The notes under the pieces were generated by a model. The model saw only the letters and a list, made by a program, of their open reading frames with translations, was not told where the DNA came from and made no database searches. A stretch of DNA of 43,264 bases from Escherichia phage Minorna: the sequence record NC_048172.1. The stretch is one strand, 5' to 3'. Every line of letters starts with the position of its first letter. The stretch's first letter is position 1. Of the stretch, positions 2,525 to 41,502 are shown one piece after another. The position numbers and the translations under genes were made by a program.

Positions 2525-2921
2525 CCTGCTGACCCTTCTTCCTAAATAGCTTACGAATCACCAGAATGGCCACTAGGAAGACCAAAGGGATGCTGGCCCC
2601 TGCTAATCCGGCGAGAATAAGACTGTAACTATCGTTGTTAACCACCTGTAGGCGCTCTGCCTGGATTGTGCCTGTACTAATAGTCTGCACTTGCTTCTTG
2701 CTAGAAGTATCCAGTGTACCTACGTTAGAATCCTGTACATCGGTTTTGTTGGTGGTGCTGGAGTCCACCTTATTATTCAGCCCGAGCATCTGTTTAGTAT
2801 TCTCAGCGCCAACCTGAGCAGATACTTCCGGCTTAGAACCAACTAAGCCGGTCAGTGCAGAGGTCGCTGAGCAACCAGTCAGAGTAACCGCGAGCAGTAA
2901 CCCAGCGACCAGTTTGCGCAT
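2517..2921 (-). CDS. unimolecular spanin (u-spanin, T1 gp11-like topology)
   Basis: 134 aa; N-terminal lipoprotein signal with lipobox (LAVTLTGC), Ser/Thr-rich periplasmic region, and C-terminal TMD (ILAGLAGASIPLVFLVAILVI) followed by RKLFRKKG; within the lysis cassette. Confidence 0.6.
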   Translation of the reverse strand: MRKLVAGLLLAVTLTGCSATSALTGLVGSKPEVSAQVGAENTKQMLGLNNKVDSSTTNKTDVQDSNVGTLDTSSKKQVQTISTGTIQAERLQVVNNDSYSLILAGLAGASIPLVFLVAILVIRKLFRKKGQQDD

Positions 2922-3103
2922 TAGCTAGCCGCCTTCACCGCTGCAATAGCAGCTTCCAGTGCGGCAACCTTAGTGTCGAACGCTGCACCAGTCTGGGCTA
3001 CGTTCTGAGGCTGCGTAAGGATTGCATACAGGTCCTTACCCAGAATGTTCAGTTGACGCAGCAGCTCCTGCTGCTGTGCTTGTGTTGCCTTAGCAATTGC
3101 CAT
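2921..3103 (-). CDS. hypothetical protein (60 aa, Ala/Gln-rich, helical)
   Basis: ORF in the gene-dense minus-strand array; stop overlaps the spanin start; no TMD. Confidence 0.4.
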   Translation of the reverse strand: MAIAKATQAQQQELLRQLNILGKDLYAILTQPQNVAQTGAAFDTKVAALEAAIAAVKAAS

Positions 3104-3116
3104 AGTAATTCTCCTA

Positions 3117-3494
3117 TTATGCTGCAGCAGCGTTAGTCGCTGCTACGAAGGCCGACTGTAGGGCCTTGAATGAGTTGTCGAAGTCCGTACCAGAACCCTC
3201 ACCTAGCGGCATACCTGTACCGGTGAGCGCTACGTAGCCGGTCTTGCTAAGCTGGAACAGCATGGAGAACAGTCGCGCCTGCAGGGTGCCATCATCCTTA
3301 AAGGATTCCCCGACAGCTGTAGCCGAGTAGCCTTGGGACTCCATGTAGGCAAAGAACGTGTTGAATTTATCCAGCGCACCCGTACCCACAAAGCCGACAT
3401 TGTAGTCAGGGGCCACCTCTTTCTCAAGGTTCTGGCTCTTGCCTACAATGGCGTACTGTACATCCGCAGATTTAGCCGCGATGATTGATGCCAT
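3117..3494 (-). CDS. hypothetical protein (125 aa)
   Basis: ORF immediately downstream of the large terminase gene; start overlaps the terminase stop; no recognisable motif. Confidence 0.5.
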   Translation of the reverse strand: MASIIAAKSADVQYAIVGKSQNLEKEVAPDYNVGFVGTGALDKFNTFFAYMESQGYSATAVGESFKDDGTLQARLFSMLFQLSKTGYVALTGTGMPLGEGSGTDFDNSFKALQSAFVAATNAAAA

Positions 3495-16640: not shown

Positions 16641-17201
16641 TTAAATCATAAAGCGTGCACGACGAATACGACGTGCGAATCTGGTCTTGCTGGTACTGTA
16701 CTTCTGGTTACGCAGATGCTCTCGCAACACCAAGGACTTGTACCGCTCTGCCTCTGCAGCGTAGTTGGCGTAGTTACCGTCACTTCCGAGGTCATTCAGG
16801 TACACCTGCGCAGCAGTGTAGTTTGCAATCCACATGGCGGCATGCTCCGGAAGATCCTCAAAGTTAAGGTCCAGTACCACCTTAATCTTAACAGGGGAAT
16901 CGAAGTACTCGTCCTGCTCGACCAGGTTGTAAAGGTTTCCATCACGTACACCATACTTATTGTCGGAGCACGCATCATACACTGCTAGCTGGTTCCACGG
17001 AATTTTAATAAAACCATCAGTTGTAGGGGTAACCTCCCGCTCAACCACATTGAACCAGTAACCGGTACTGAGCAATCCTCGGCGATTACGCGCGAGCGCA
17101 GAACGTGCTAATCCCGCACTAAGGTTTGAAGTATTGATATCCATAACGCGAGATTCCCCTAGGGCTTCCAGCGTCAAATTAATGGCGTCTAACTCTCTCA
17201 T
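16641..17201 (-). CDS. tail tubular protein A (T7 gp11-like)
   Basis: Position after capsid and terminator; start set to ATG 17201 (MRELDAINLT..); the track ORF to 17321 would run through the terminator hairpin. Confidence 0.7.
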   Translation of the reverse strand: MRELDAINLTLEALGESRVMDINTSNLSAGLARSALARNRRGLLSTGYWFNVVEREVTPTTDGFIKIPWNQLAVYDACSDNKYGVRDGNLYNLVEQDEYFDSPVKIKVVLDLNFEDLPEHAAMWIANYTAAQVYLNDLGSDGNYANYAAEAERYKSLVLREHLRNQKYSTSKTRFARRIRRARFMI

Positions 17202-17246
17202 ATTTGTTCCTCTATTAAAGACCCCTAGGACCCTTAAGACAGGGAC

Positions 17247-17284
17247 AAAAAAAAAAGCCCCCGGCACCCGAAGGCACCAGGGGC
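17247..17284 (-). terminator. rho-independent terminator downstream of the capsid operon (T-phi-like)
   Basis: Minus-strand RNA gccccuggugcc-UUCG-ggugccgggggc followed by U10 (plus strand shows A10 at 17247-17256 then the hairpin): 12-bp stem including three G-U pairs, UUCG tetraloop, long U-tract. Confidence 0.85.
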
Positions 17285-17289
17285 GCATA

Positions 17290-17487
17290 TTACTCTTTAG
17301 TTTCTGTACCCGTCGCTGCATCAGCTACTGCATCAACAGCTTTGCGGGTACGCTTAGTAGCTTTACGGCCAGATTCTACCGAACCTACTTGAATGTGCTT
17401 CGCTACATCAGAGGCGGCCTTTACCGCCTCACGTTGAGCAGCGTTGGCCTGGAGAGTCTCCAGACCGAACACGGCGATTACTGCCAT
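17290..17487 (-). CDS. hypothetical small protein (65 aa) between capsid gene and terminator
   Basis: Own ATG with strong SD (tgattGGAGGttaaATG); Ala/Lys-rich; a TAA stop sits directly upstream of the ATG in this frame, so it is not a capsid frameshift extension. Confidence 0.5.
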   Translation of the reverse strand: MAVIAVFGLETLQANAAQREAVKAASDVAKHIQVGSVESGRKATKRTRKAVDAVADAATGTETKE

Positions 17488-17498
17488 TTAACCTCCAA

Positions 17499-18518
17499 TC
17501 AGACTTTGGTGGTGAAAGTGAACTTAGTCACTGCCGCTGTATCCGGACGGCGCAGACCGATGTTGTACATCGCGTAGCAGTCCAGAACGTTGTTGAACTC
17601 GCGCTGGTCATCCCAGATACGAGAAGTGAACGGCTTAGCCTCTACCGTCACCAGGGTCTTGGACTTGCTGAAAGTTACCATGCGGCACTTCGCATCATCC
17701 GCGGTAACGGTGTAAGCCGAACCCAGCGGGTGCGTACCAGCTTCGGTCGGGAACTCAGTGCACTCTACTACCGGCACACCGTTCATTTTCACAACTCGGC
17801 GATTCTTATAGCCATCGTCGTTAGTTGCGCCGAACTCGAGATTTAACAGCTTCGGATGCTCCAGCAGTCGGGAGTAGGTATCCACGTCCACCAGAGTAAT
17901 CATATCCATCAGCGGGGTCTTACGCTTGATGAGTTCATCGATACCAGCCTTGTGAGCCAGGTTGATGTTCATGGCGTTGGCTTCCATCTCAGCCTGAGTC
18001 AGCTGCTTATCCGGAGTGTTACCCGCTACGAGGATAGAGGCACCTACTTCGATACCGTCGTTGAACGCAGGCTTCAGGTGCGCTGGTGCAACCCAGGAAC
18101 GGCCCTTGATGAGCTGAATCAGGTGCGCCTGGTCGAAGGTCTCCGCGAATTCGGAACCGTTGTTCTGGCCCATCTCAGAGAGGAAGTCCGGACCAGTCCA
18201 GTCGTCCTGGTAGTCGATTGGGTTACGGATGTACAGCACCGTATCCACTACGATAATCATCTTATCGTTACGGACCGGAGTGCTATCCAGCGCTTCACCA
18301 GAACGACGACCCTTCACCGCAGAGGTATTCAGGCGGTCGATACGGTAGGTGTTAGAGCCGCTGATAGAGCGCTGGCTAGAGAGGCCTAGGAACAGCGCCT
18401 GGTACTGGAAGCGAGTGTCCACTTCGTTCTGGTACACTTCCAGGTGAATATCTACGTCGGACGCCGCGCCGCCCCAATGTGGACGAGTGTCACCAGCTTT
18501 ATAAATAGTATCTGCCAT
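17499..18518 (-). CDS. major capsid protein (T7 gp10-like)
   Basis: 339-aa ORF (T7 gp10A is about 345 aa) directly after the scaffold gene and followed by a strong terminator. Confidence 0.85.
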   Translation of the reverse strand: MADTIYKAGDTRPHWGGAASDVDIHLEVYQNEVDTRFQYQALFLGLSSQRSISGSNTYRIDRLNTSAVKGRRSGEALDSTPVRNDKMIIVVDTVLYIRNPIDYQDDWTGPDFLSEMGQNNGSEFAETFDQAHLIQLIKGRSWVAPAHLKPAFNDGIEVGASILVAGNTPDKQLTQAEMEANAMNINLAHKAGIDELIKRKTPLMDMITLVDVDTYSRLLEHPKLLNLEFGATNDDGYKNRRVVKMNGVPVVECTEFPTEAGTHPLGSAYTVTADDAKCRMVTFSKSKTLVTVEAKPFTSRIWDDQREFNNVLDCYAMYNIGLRRPDTAAVTKFTFTTKV

Positions 18519-21034: not shown

Positions 21035-21298
21035 TTACAGGCCCAGGGGGTTGCTCTGCCCTGCCTGTCGCCGTTTCTTCTGCTCAGACGTAATTGCATC
21101 TGCAGATGCAGAGGCCGCCCCGGAGGGGTTGATCTCAGCAATATTGTCAGCTGCACTGTTCGCCTCTAAGGCTGCCTGCTGTTTTGCTGCCTCGGCCTGC
21201 TGCTCAGCCATGCGCTGCTGTTGTTCTAATCCTTCGTTATCAGTAAGGCCAAGCATATCCGTGGCCTTACCTAACAGTTTACCTAATCCACCGCTCAT
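21035..21298 (-). CDS. hypothetical protein (87 aa; possible small virion protein by position before the portal gene)
   Basis: Gln/Ala-rich helical ORF; contains the 16-bp palindrome TGCATCTGCAGATGCA in its coding sequence. Confidence 0.4.
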   Translation of the reverse strand: MSGGLGKLLGKATDMLGLTDNEGLEQQQRMAEQQAEAAKQQAALEANSAADNIAEINPSGAASASADAITSEQKKRRQAGQSNPLGL

Positions 21299-22106: not shown

Positions 22107-24575
22107 TCAACAAAAGAAGAATGGAGATTCCAGCACTTGTCGGATGTCCAAAGTACCGATTGCAGGCATCTCTAAATCTGTGAGGTCTGCCCCTGCTTCG
22201 GCAGCTGCCCGGGTAATATCTCCAAGCAGATCGTGCTCCTCGTACAACTTCACAAACTGTTCACGGATATGTCGGTGCAGGGCATCTACATCAGCCGCAT
22301 GAGTAGCCATTGAGTCGTGAATCGGGACAATATCCAGACCCTCTGCAGCACAGAGCACCATCATGAGGTGTGTGCTATCTAGGCTATGCACAAAGTTCGG
22401 AGCAATACCGGAGGCAGCCTTGCGCTTATTACAGGTCTTAAAGTCACGGTTGTGCACCAGCACGGCAGACAAGTTCATGCAGTCAATACGTACACGCACC
22501 TCCTCTCGTTGAGAGTACCGGTTCATCACTAGCCCACCTAGCGGGGTCTTCCACTGCAGATGCTGACTAGCAGGTACACGCCTAGCGAGGTTCTGCAGAT
22601 ACCCCATAGCTGCTGCTGCTGCCGGGTTAGCTTCCTCAATAGCGCTACGCATTCTAGGGGCAAGGTAGCAGGATAAGTTCCAGAGACTGTGCGTGTCTGT
22701 TCCTTCATACCCCTCTTCACAAGCACCTGCAAAGATGTAGTCGCTGCAGCTGCGCACCGTGGCGCTGTAGAAGTAGGTCATGCTAGGACGCTTGGTCATG
22801 CTTCGAGTGATTTTGTTCTCTCTCCAGTACGTGCTCTGGATAACGAAATCCTCTTTGTCCAGGTCCAGTATCACCTTCTCGTCCGTACGGCGCTTCACGT
22901 CCATATACAGGTCCGCTTTCTTGTCGTTACCCTCCCAGTACAAGTTAGTCAGGCGCCCGCCTACAGGGTCTCTCAGGAGCGCTGAGAGGTGCTGCCCACC
23001 TGAGTTTGTAGCATCCATAGCAACTGGGATTCGGCTAATATACTCTTCTGGGCATCCAGAACGTACAGCATTAACCAAGTCGATAGCGGCTGCCAGGAAG
23101 CACCAAGGGCTGTCGGCGGAGGTAAAAGCAGGGCAATCAAAAGGAGAATCCGCGAGCTGCTCAATCTCTGCAAAGTTTGCATCAACCCAAGCTGCACGGT
23201 CTTCGAATAGGGTTTTGTCATAACCAAAGCAGGTAGCGACGTGCACTTTAAGCCAGAATAACCCTCTCTCTCCCAGAGGTTTACCTCGTCCGAATTCAAG
23301 AAGTGCCTTCTGCAGATCAGAACCTTGGGGGTGCAGTGAGGACTTGAAGTACAGCCGGTATCGCCAATCCACACAGGTTGGGAAGTACAGGGCTTTCTCA
23401 TCTTTGAATTCCTCTGCCATCTCTAGCGTGGTCAATAGGCTACGTAGTTGCGACACACGCTTACGGTCAGCGCTGTACCAAAGAGACATACGCGTCTTCC
23501 ACTCTCCGAAGCGGTCGAGTTCCTCCTCGGTGTAATTCTCTTTTGGTACACCATCTAAGTACCACTCAGGTTTCGGCTCTGGCACTGAGCGCGGCATACC
23601 TACACCAATACCTAAGGCCCGTGCTTCTTGTACCAGTTCCAGTATTCGCTTATTAATGCGATAAGGAGTTTCCTGCGCCTTATTCAGTGCCTTCTTGATA
23701 CCGTCCGCAGACTTAAATGCTTCCGCTACTTCACGCAGTCTGGCGCGGTCAATGTGTGAGTTGTGGTACGTCCCACGGTTATCGATTGGGGTGAGGTATC
23801 CACCATCCCACAGTGTAGTATGTTGCACCGGCGGCACCAGCATCGGAGGCTTCATAGTTACAGTGTCAGCAGATTCCACTAACTGCTGAAATGCTTCCAT
23901 AACATTATCTGCGGGATAGAGCATACTCAAGTTCCCGCTACCAGTCTTCCATTGGAACAGCCCTGTCTCAAACACTGCGGAACACAGCAGACGTCCCACA
24001 GAAATATTCTGAGCGTTGGTCCAAGGCTCATGCCCATAGTGCACGTTCTCAGCACTGGCGCGGAGCGTACGCAGAATGTGCGTAGGCGACTTAGTACGGC
24101 GCTCAGTGAGGTATTCATATACCCGGTCCATATACGCTGGGGCAACATTACGCAGTTGTAGGGCCAGCAGCTCTGACTGTACATTCCTACCCAGAGCGGA
24201 CATCACTGCCTGTGCTGTCTGGCGGCGACTGGCGGACTCACCAGGGGCAACACTGAACGCCTCAAACATTGTGCACAGGCTCAGAGTAGTTAGGACATCC
24301 AAGGGGACTAAGCGTAGGAATCGGCGGTACTTTCCACCGATACCCGGGGCTTTGACATTACGCATTTCCTCAATGGCTGCAGAGGCCACGTCGTACGCAG
24401 AGGTTAGCATGCGCTGAGCCATAGGCAGGTTCATAATCCCGCCGTTTTGCAGAGCATCGGTAATCAATTTGCGAGCACGTTCAATGCCGCGAATCTTGTA
24501 GGTCTCTTCAAGCTCCAACTGACGTTCCACCAGCGCTTCATCTGGTACTACAACCGTATTCAGGGCGCTAATCAT
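22107..24575 (-). CDS. single-subunit DNA-directed RNA polymerase (T7-like)
   Basis: 822-aa ORF, the size of phiKMV-type single-subunit RNAPs, at the junction of replication and structural modules; AAGGAG SD upstream of the ATG. Confidence 0.85.
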   Translation of the reverse strand: MISALNTVVVPDEALVERQLELEETYKIRGIERARKLITDALQNGGIMNLPMAQRMLTSAYDVASAAIEEMRNVKAPGIGGKYRRFLRLVPLDVLTTLSLCTMFEAFSVAPGESASRRQTAQAVMSALGRNVQSELLALQLRNVAPAYMDRVYEYLTERRTKSPTHILRTLRASAENVHYGHEPWTNAQNISVGRLLCSAVFETGLFQWKTGSGNLSMLYPADNVMEAFQQLVESADTVTMKPPMLVPPVQHTTLWDGGYLTPIDNRGTYHNSHIDRARLREVAEAFKSADGIKKALNKAQETPYRINKRILELVQEARALGIGVGMPRSVPEPKPEWYLDGVPKENYTEEELDRFGEWKTRMSLWYSADRKRVSQLRSLLTTLEMAEEFKDEKALYFPTCVDWRYRLYFKSSLHPQGSDLQKALLEFGRGKPLGERGLFWLKVHVATCFGYDKTLFEDRAAWVDANFAEIEQLADSPFDCPAFTSADSPWCFLAAAIDLVNAVRSGCPEEYISRIPVAMDATNSGGQHLSALLRDPVGGRLTNLYWEGNDKKADLYMDVKRRTDEKVILDLDKEDFVIQSTYWRENKITRSMTKRPSMTYFYSATVRSCSDYIFAGACEEGYEGTDTHSLWNLSCYLAPRMRSAIEEANPAAAAAMGYLQNLARRVPASQHLQWKTPLGGLVMNRYSQREEVRVRIDCMNLSAVLVHNRDFKTCNKRKAASGIAPNFVHSLDSTHLMMVLCAAEGLDIVPIHDSMATHAADVDALHRHIREQFVKLYEEHDLLGDITRAAAEAGADLTDLEMPAIGTLDIRQVLESPFFFC

Positions 24576-40690: not shown

Positions 40691-40720
40691 TTCACATAGC
40701 GCCCCGCAGGACGCTATAGG
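40691..40720 (-). promoter_or_regulatory. conserved dyad element, copy 1 (atagcg-N10-cgctat)
   Basis: Plus strand ttcacatagcgccccgcaggacgctatagg; 26 of 30 nt identical to copy 2, with a compensatory pair change in the stem; lies in a 188-nt intergenic gap; a perfect TATAAT (minus strand, 40732-40727) sits just upstream. Confidence 0.5.
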
Positions 40721-40855
40721 CTTACCATTATACGTATTCTCCCAATCCCTCATAGTGCCACCTGTTATGGCGGCCTCGGGTTGGCACATCAAAGGCGTCA
40801 GAGTCGTTAGCTGCCGGAATCAGTGCTCACCACTTGATAGCTTGAATCTTATAAA

Positions 40856-41466: not shown

Positions 41467-41496
41467 TTCACATAGCACCCCATAGGATGCTATAGG
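41467..41496 (-). promoter_or_regulatory. conserved dyad element, copy 2 (atagca-N10-tgctat)
   Basis: Plus strand ttcacatagcaccccataggatgctatagg; relative to copy 1 the stem changes G/C to A/T at paired positions; 36 nt upstream of the ATG at 41431. Confidence 0.5.
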
Positions 41497-41502
41497 CTGT
41501 AA

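Follow-up and report, generated by a model that had tools for sequence, protein, structure and literature searches.

How does the head-gene unit of a KP34-like phage end, and what is encoded in its last stretch, between the major capsid gene and the gene of tail tubular protein A? The question is raised by positions 17,202 to 17,487 of Escherichia phage Minorna (NC_048172.1), a complete Drulisvirus genome of 43,264 nt (KP34-like; Autographiviridae, Slopekvirinae) in which every gene lies on the minus strand, and which is called the window in what follows. The stretch holds a small open reading frame (ORF) of 65 amino acids, a hairpin followed by a run of U, and a spacer of 45 nt. The capsid gene is the final large gene ahead of the hairpin and the tail tubular protein A gene is the first one past it (Table 1). 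We consider it likely that the head-gene unit ends here with an intrinsic terminator of the T7 T-phi type (class I), preceded by a separate small cistron with a flexible, virion-associated product. Conservation was followed in 56 related Drulisvirus loci from IMG/VR (labels such as L019): the capsid stop could be located in 55 of them and the hairpin parsed in 52, while 53 entered the scan for slippery sites and 51 the comparison of the spacer. The closest kin are Escherichia phage ZH5, Klebsiella phage KPV811 and Shigella phage SFN6B, all Drulisvirus, with 94-96% identity over the region queried.

The hairpin begins 5 nt past the TAA of the small ORF. Its DNA reads GCCCCTGGTGCC-TTCG-GGTGCCGGGGGC (17284-17257) and is followed by T10 (17256-17247), which gives in RNA form GCCCCUGGUGCC-UUCG-GGUGCCGGGGGC and then U10 (17284-17247). 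The stem is built by 12 pairs, nine G-C and three G-U, and the RNA reaches a minimum free energy of -25.8 kcal/mol, with a z of -3.0 relative to shuffles. On the antisense strand just -15.2 kcal/mol is attained, because the three G-U pairs turn into C-A mismatches there, and the hairpin is therefore strand-specific, with the sense strand favoured. Whole-window scans found no second site that joins a long stem with a true T-run, and the post-capsid hairpin is by far the best terminator-like site of the genome; no Rfam family was matched anywhere in the 43,264 nt. Hairpin and U10 carry all the sequence hallmarks of a strong intrinsic terminator, at which termination is predicted. An earlier note, made from the letters of the window, had described this terminator by its 12-bp stem, UUCG loop and U10 and had called it the clearest regulatory signal in the window, and the folding (17284-17247, minus strand) and the genome scans agree with it on both counts, the second one understood as a statement on terminators.

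The terminator is kept in all 56 loci, including those that have inserts upstream of it. All 52 parsable loci share one sequence of 5' arm and loop, and the sole polymorphism of the hairpin is an A/G change in the 3' arm that preserves pairing (U-A or U-G); within the genus the stem is invariant and gives no covariation apart from this one change. Minorna carries the U-G variant, seen in 8 of the 52, and the length of the U-run ranges from 7 to 12 T across these relatives. The hairpin has a per-site diversity of 0.011, 16-fold below the 0.178 of the third codon positions in the small ORF. In some relatives extra DNA sets the terminator apart from the small ORF. In L059 and L060 (1672-1854) it amounts to about 180 nt that seem to be non-coding, and small ORF, its Shine-Dalgarno sequence (SD) and terminator are all intact there; in L026 and L054 (1718-2065) it is a gene of about 108-115 amino acids (MKDIRNIITG...EYGTEVWHKRCTG...), a homolog of which occupies the equivalent place in Enterobacter phage Entb_48 (L062, 1970-2296).

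The element is already published and annotated as the single Rho-independent terminator of KP34-like phages. Exactly this sequence was listed as such by Eriksson et al. 2015 (Viruses 7:1804, Table 3; PMC4411677), who found it common to KP34, SU503, SU552A, F19 and NTUH-K2044-K1-1, and SU503 and KpV48 carry it as an annotated feature in GenBank. The KP34 terminator is GCCCCTGGTGCCTTCGGGTGCCAGGGGC followed by a T-run, from which Minorna differs by one base of the 3' arm (G for A), like NTUH-K2044-K1-1 (PMC4411677). Long-read transcriptomics of LUZ100, a T7-like phage, places a strong terminator directly past the capsid gene, as in T7 (PMC10134795).

The correspondence with T-phi, which the earlier note had drawn from position, is supported by synteny: in T7 and in Minorna the order is capsid gene, short coding stretch in the -1 frame, GC-rich hairpin with a U-run, and tail tubular A. 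The two elements are also alike in the ribosome-binding site (RBS) of the next gene, of GAGGAAC type (AGAGGAACAAATATG here and AAGGAGGAACTATATG in T7), and in folding energy (-28.2 kcal/mol in T7 and -25.8 here). The stem sequences are however unrelated; the stem of Minorna is the shorter one, pairs perfectly and is closed by a UUCG tetraloop, and its U-run has 10 residues versus 6 in T7. Hairpins of unrelated sequence with a U-run fold at the equivalent position in PAS7, Entb_48, PM16, KF2 and T7 (T-phi), and stem-loop sequences lie between capsid gene and tail tubular A in phiKMV, Percy and PP16, annotated as terminators in phiKMV and Percy. LIMElight (L064, 1661-1701), Loshitsa2 (L070, 1265-1310) and Fri1 (L069, 1037-1091) have a hairpin between the capsid gene and the small ORF, in a gap of 46-55 nt, and downstream of that ORF a further hairpin that is weaker, so the order of ORF and main hairpin is not fixed across genera. 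Two tRNA genes are found within the post-capsid intergenic region of Loshitsa2.

The C(UUCG)G tetraloop, at 17266-17275 on the minus strand of Minorna, also caps the post-capsid hairpin of Vibrio KF2, Pectobacterium PP16, Erwinia Loshitsa2 and Pseudomonas phiKMV (L066, L068, L070 and L067). Such caps in otherwise unrelated genera suggest recurrent selection for an extra-stable loop. Hairpins with a UUCG tetraloop are an efficient block to 3' exonucleases, and in some of the genera with a UUCG-capped post-capsid hairpin a long U-run is missing (LIMElight, Loshitsa2, PP16); the element could on these grounds be chiefly a stabiliser of the RNA 3' end, or a processing site for the capsid mRNA, and not a transcription stop. 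This seems to us quite improbable, since a conserved tract of 7-12 U right behind the stem is what marks intrinsic termination and is unneeded for stabilisation, and since a hairpin can both stabilise and terminate.

If the hairpin ends the head-gene unit as a terminator, the small ORF is the last gene before it. The junction with the capsid gene reads ...AAA GTC TGA TTGGAGGTTAA ATG GCA..., in which the capsid stop TGA occupies 17501-17499 and the ATG, 11 nt past it, 17487-17485. The SD, GGAGG, is found at 17496-17492, 4 nt ahead of the ATG, which is a rather short spacing, and the ORF stops with TAA at 17292-17290. Because of the conserved gap of 11 nt the small ORF stands in the -1 frame of the capsid gene; in that frame one TAA abuts the 5' side of the ATG and a second one lies 13 codons upstream. 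Both the gap and TTGGAGGTT are kept in every locus where the two genes adjoin, that is in 53 of the 55 loci with a locatable capsid stop. In L019 (myPSH1235-like; 1238-1501) an 87-amino-acid gene stands between them, and there the small ORF retains its own SD and the terminator is intact; the small ORF stays intact with its SD despite foreign genes inserted on either side. The ratio of nonsynonymous to synonymous substitution rates (dN/dS) is 0.12 in its own frame versus 2.0 and 3.6 in the other two, and per-site diversity at codon positions 1, 2 and 3 is 0.032, 0.026 and 0.178. Judged by these substitution patterns and start signals, the small ORF is a genuine protein-coding, separately initiated cistron under purifying selection, and its SD directly after the capsid stop makes termination-reinitiation coupling likely.

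Table 1. Coordinates of the features discussed, in the 43,264-nt window of Escherichia phage Minorna.
Feature	Coordinates	Strand	Basis
Major capsid protein gene, 339 aa	17499..18518	(-)	ORF list, phrog_267, PDB 23sf gp17
Junction: capsid TGA, 11 nt with GGAGG, TAA before ATG	17488..17501	(-)	sequence, 53/55 loci
Small ORF, 65 aa (MAVIAVFGLETLQANAAQREAVKAASDVAKHIQVGSVESGRKATKRTRKAVDAVADAATGTETKE)	17290..17487	(-)	ORF list, phrog_7403
Terminator hairpin, 12-bp stem, C(UUCG)G tetraloop	17257..17284	(-)	sequence, folding, conservation, Eriksson 2015 Table 3
U10 tract of the terminator	17247..17256	(-)	sequence
45-nt spacer from the U-run to the tail tubular A start, including its RBS (AGAGGAAC)	17202..17246	(-)	diversity, genome search, folding
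Tail tubular protein A (adaptor, T7 gp11 homolog) gene	16641..17201	(-)	PF17212, phrog_446
Decoration-protein homolog, 125 aa	3117..3494	(-)	phmmer: PDB 23sf gp6 E 5e-58; HRP29 8eld Gp47
Decoration-protein homolog, 60 aa	2921..3103	(-)	phmmer: PDB 23sf gp5 E 1e-25; HRP29 8eld Gp48

The place of the small ORF recalls the -1-frame extension of the T7 capsid protein, and its sequence could be made, at least partly, by frameshifting, which would give a minor longer capsid species like T7 gp10B. In favour of this, the ORF uses the -1 frame, across a gap of 11 nt that Drulisvirus conserves, the architecture is that of T7 (10A stop, -1-frame extension, T-phi), and an extra band of 42 kDa in KP34 led its describers to speculate on frameshifting (PMC3082699). 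The -1 frame is shut right at the ATG in 14 of the 56 loci, Minorna included, and 6-13 codons upstream of it in about ten others; it is open for 25-51 codons in the rest, and in about 30 relatives, KP34 among them, it is open 37-51 codons back into the capsid gene. A fusion is not possible in this genome, because TAA directly precedes the ATG, as it does in 13 other loci, and further loci have a TAA 12-13 codons upstream. The slippery heptamer X XXY YYZ is absent from the last 60 capsid codons in all 53 loci scanned; the same codons of these loci hold no T7-like G GUU UUC near the capsid 3' end, and no single-slip site is conserved in the open part. The analogous ORFs of PAS7 and PM16 lie in the 0 frame with a gap of 9 nt, so the frame relation is not conserved between genera, and the small ORF of L019 retains its own SD where it is parted from the capsid gene. 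A frameshift fusion was rejected for Minorna on account of the TAA, and elsewhere it is unsupported, with no slippery site and a varying frame relation. We regard production by frameshifting as extremely unlikely, and a frameshift origin of the 42-kDa band of KP34 finds no support in the sequences compared here. The earlier note had given the ORF 65 residues, a strong SD, the -1 frame and a stop codon that separates it from the capsid gene, and had concluded that it makes a separate product and not a frameshift extension; all of this holds.

The separate cistron encodes a protein with an isoelectric point (pI) of 9.3, which has a hydrophobic N-terminus, an Ala-rich helical middle, a basic cluster (GRKATKRTRKA) and an acidic tail. 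It matches phrog_7403, a family of unknown function, with E 6.9e-37 over residues 1-59 of the 60-position profile, which is a full-length match. There are 203 homologs of 59-65 amino acids, and among those listed, every one on a contig of near-genome length (about 40-49 kb) comes with the genome size of a Drulisvirus, the others being on short fragments; the family is found in 247 phage records, essentially all of them Drulisvirus, and an exhaustive HMMER search of 1.8 billion representatives returned one cluster only. Conservation is about 90% over the first 49 residues, and the acidic tail is variable; the 65-amino-acid form, with a slightly longer acidic tail, belongs to the clade of this genome, and most relatives have 60 residues. 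Over its first 50 residues the protein is about 85% identical to gp43 of vB_KpnP_fHeKpn01 (MAVIATFGLETLQ...), a "putative structural protein" whose GenBank note states that it is virion-associated and was verified experimentally by liquid chromatography-tandem mass spectrometry (LC-MS/MS) of phage particles. The family is a known hypothetical-protein family that carries a proteomic note, and virion association is taken from this note on a relative. In the Proteus phage PM16 the positional analog, gp32, carries the product name "virion protein". The earlier note had held that a lack of both peptide evidence and conservation would refute the small product, and this refutation fails: dN/dS is 0.12, and fHeKpn01 gp43 is annotated as LC-MS/MS-verified. 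One reading of the N-terminus, that it copies or mimics the C-terminal strand of the capsid protein (AAVTKFTF; AVVFKVE in T7), was rejected, as a fraction of 0.07-0.98 of random windows from the phage proteome score as high or higher in local alignment.

A small virion-associated protein encoded next to the capsid gene could be an ordered decoration or cement protein, held at defined sites outside the capsid lattice, and a decoration or minor capsid protein is what the earlier note had proposed. Besides the shared transcript and the annotations of fHeKpn01 and PM16, its size, near that of a known 60-residue helical decoration protein, fits with such a role, and the Ar-KM preprint mentions a further, still unidentified decoration component on a phiKMV-like capsid. 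Decoration proteins of related podophages form helical "claw" dimers at two-fold axes (PMC11440229; Ar-KM preprint), and these alpha-claw/alpha-paw proteins (HRP29 Gp47/Gp48; PhiM1 gp43/gp44; Ar-KM gp54/gp55) resemble the small protein in being of about 60 amino acids, predicted helical and virion-associated. They differ from it in being encoded after the terminase genes, and in having no sequence similarity to it, and their structures lack it. In Minorna their homologs are two genes which directly follow the terminase genes, 14 kb away from the capsid gene, and which are called hypothetical in most GenBank relatives; for annotators, these are the real decoration proteins. They are the ones modelled on near-identical and related capsids, paralogy of the small protein with either was rejected, as BLASTP gave no alignment, no PDB chain matches the small protein or five of its positional analogs, and phiKMV has no ORF at the post-capsid position. 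An ordered decoration protein therefore appears very unlikely. The decoration part of the earlier proposal fails, since that function maps to 2921-3103 and 3117-3494; the small protein is probably not an ordered capsid decoration protein, and a minor virion-associated protein is possible.

It could also be non-structural, that is an assembly helper, a nucleic-acid-binding factor or a regulator, and the mass spectrometry (MS) signal in virions would then be contamination or sticking of the basic tail. The small protein is missing from all solved virion models: it is not among the chains of 23sf, 23sg and 23sh, from a near-identical phage, or of 8eld and 8em6, from HRP29, a statement that rests on the models as deposited; a cryo-electron microscopy (cryo-EM) paper on a Drulisvirus was not found in the literature searched. 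High expression is expected from the capsid mRNA, the basic K/R/A-rich tail is common to the analogs (pI 9.3-10.3), one GenBank record names a homolog "putative transcriptional regulator", and a tethered-dimer model has a strand-helix-helix topology, though at a predicted local distance difference test (pLDDT) of 32. Two independent records nevertheless mark the protein or an analog as a virion protein. Pfam gives no match and no DNA-binding domain, with DUF6894 as the best entry at E 0.34, and the N-terminal strand is wholly hydrophobic, unlike the DNA-reading strands of ribbon-helix-helix proteins. A non-structural role is in our view rather unlikely.

Post-capsid ORFs of 42-72 amino acids are found in Entb_48, PAS7, PM16, LIMElight, Loshitsa2, KF2 and Fri1. 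Most of the products start with MA[VIL][LI]..[FYIL], have a helical middle and a K/R/A-rich end with a short acidic tip, and have pI values of 9.3-10.3; the two ORFs of Fri1 look different and were not scored for charge. With the PAS7/Entb_48 group hhalign aligned 11 residues at P = 0.012, and a multi-genus profile added merely about 26 proteins, none with an informative name. Common descent of the small protein with these analogs is plausible from their sequence pattern.

The tail of T7 gp10B, of about 57 amino acids, is similar in being encoded in the -1 frame between capsid stop and terminator and in its composition, which is rich in Ala, basic over a stretch close to the C-terminus and acidic at the end. 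It differs in that the ORF of Minorna is free-standing, with its own SD and ATG, is shut off by TAA and has no slippery site, and in its charge (pI 4.7, acidic, in T7 versus 9.3, basic, here). The small protein might be the free-standing counterpart of this tail, and both might derive from an ancient Autographiviridae module of capsid gene, Ala/Lys/Arg-rich peptide of 40-70 residues and terminator, the peptide being a flexible, capsid-linked, polyanion-binding appendage beyond the reach of averaging in cryo-EM. Such a module may be decoded in three ways: as a -1-frame cistron (Drulisvirus, Entb_48, KF2), as a 0-frame cistron (PAS7, PM16) and by programmed frameshift (T7). We consider this broader proposal unlikely.

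Several results weigh against the explanation preferred here, of a T-phi-type terminator preceded by a cistron for a flexible virion-associated protein. The literature searched gave no transcript-end data for a Drulisvirus, and the efficiency of termination and the responsible polymerase are inferred. As the small protein is absent from the 23sf/23sg/23sh and HRP29 models, its detection by MS could be carry-over of an abundant non-structural protein. AlphaFold (AF2) predicts the monomer as one long helix with a pLDDT of 59 and gives the tethered dimer, as said, 32, both of low confidence. The relation to other genera is weak: homology to the T7 10B extension was rejected, as there are short low-complexity matches only and no significant similarity, and hhalign places residues 1-25 in register with the Loshitsa2/LIMElight/PM16 group at P = 0.0066 and a probability of 6%. 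The phages phiKMV, PP16 and Percy have no ORF at the post-capsid position, so the small ORF is no universal requirement.

Past the terminator, the spacer that leads to the tail gene is nearly invariant: its diversity over 51 loci (L005-L058) is 0.021 per site, where third codon positions in the small ORF reach 0.178. The genome has no second copy of it, and its fold does not surpass that of shuffles (z = -0.15). That it is a repeated phage promoter was rejected, since it is present in a single copy and is unrelated to the KP34 motif (40691-40721, 41467-41497). Candidate roles for it are those of a late promoter or start site, of a region that controls translation, or of a homing-endonuclease target kept uniform by gene conversion.

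In many relatives an HNH/AP2 homing-endonuclease gene is inserted exactly at the start of tail tubular A, of which it captures the RBS and the first codons (MREL...). The insert lies at about 1780-2400 in L006-L009, L011, L014, L016, L021, L031, L049, L051-L053, L056, L058 and L060, and at 1095-1562 in SFN6B (L004); it is absent from Minorna, where 16641-17201 is intact. The tail gene of the endonuclease-bearing relatives is annotated with an N-terminal extension that overlaps the 3' end of the endonuclease gene. Nine IMG/VR contigs (L027, L033, L035, L038, L047, L051, L054, L055 and L059), from metagenome 3300045988 and, for one of them, 3300029531, begin or end within about 70-1000 nt downstream of the small ORF, and one ends within an over-long poly-T. 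These contig ends are probably breakage of the assembly at the homopolymer together with presence/absence polymorphism of the HNH gene, and not a biological genome end.

The genes on both sides of the region are well assigned. The capsid protein matches phrog_267, major head protein, with E 4e-95, is near-identical to the "major capsid protein gp17" of PDB 23sf (E 1e-214) and is also close to HRP29 Gp37 (8eld) and PhiM1 gp38 (8vb0). Tail tubular protein A matches the Pfam family PF17212 (Tube) with E 3.5e-25, and phrog_446. Further upstream, between the RNA-polymerase region and the portal gene, an ORF of 87 amino acids (21035-21298, minus strand) matches the chain "gp20" of PDB 23sg with E 5e-41 and is therefore a structurally observed virion component; its counterpart in the KPV811 RefSeq record is labelled virion structural protein. 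The published KP34-like motif, GCCTATAGC.TCCTA.GGGG.GCTATGTGAA, which was proposed as a phage promoter or nick site, is present in two copies in the early region, at 40691-40721 and 41467-41497 on the minus strand, and a sigma-70-like promoter, TTGACA-17-TAGATT, is found at 42295-42267 on the same strand.

The following course of events would fit these observations. The phage RNA polymerase, encoded at 22107-24575, would transcribe the head genes at a high level, and most transcripts through the portal, scaffold, capsid and small-ORF genes would stop at the hairpin and U10, which would leave a stable UUCG-capped hairpin that may protect the 3' end of the very abundant capsid mRNA. Read-through, possibly together with an unrecognised start in the 45-nt spacer, would supply the late genes downstream, which span 17 kb (tail, internal-virion, terminase, decoration, lysis) and lack an identified promoter (PMC4411677). 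Ribosomes that finish the capsid gene would reinitiate at the small ORF, tying its output to capsid production. Its product may accompany virions as a flexible or low-occupancy, capsid-associated accessory protein with a basic tail, which would be no ordered component of the lattice and would be analogous in position and composition to the gp10B tail of T7.

The finding as a whole is ordinary and largely known, and it matters little beyond annotation: the terminator is a published landmark that marks off the head genes, with their high expression, from those for tail, packaging and lysis. It is also a useful engineering part for KP34-like therapeutic Klebsiella phages. Of remaining interest are the invariance of the 45-nt spacer and the role of a highly conserved microprotein unseen by cryo-EM, which is probably made in near-capsid amounts and is reported in virions, yet is invisible in three structural atlases. 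Placing this protein and the ligand of its basic tail would complete the parts list of a genus that is widely used in therapy.

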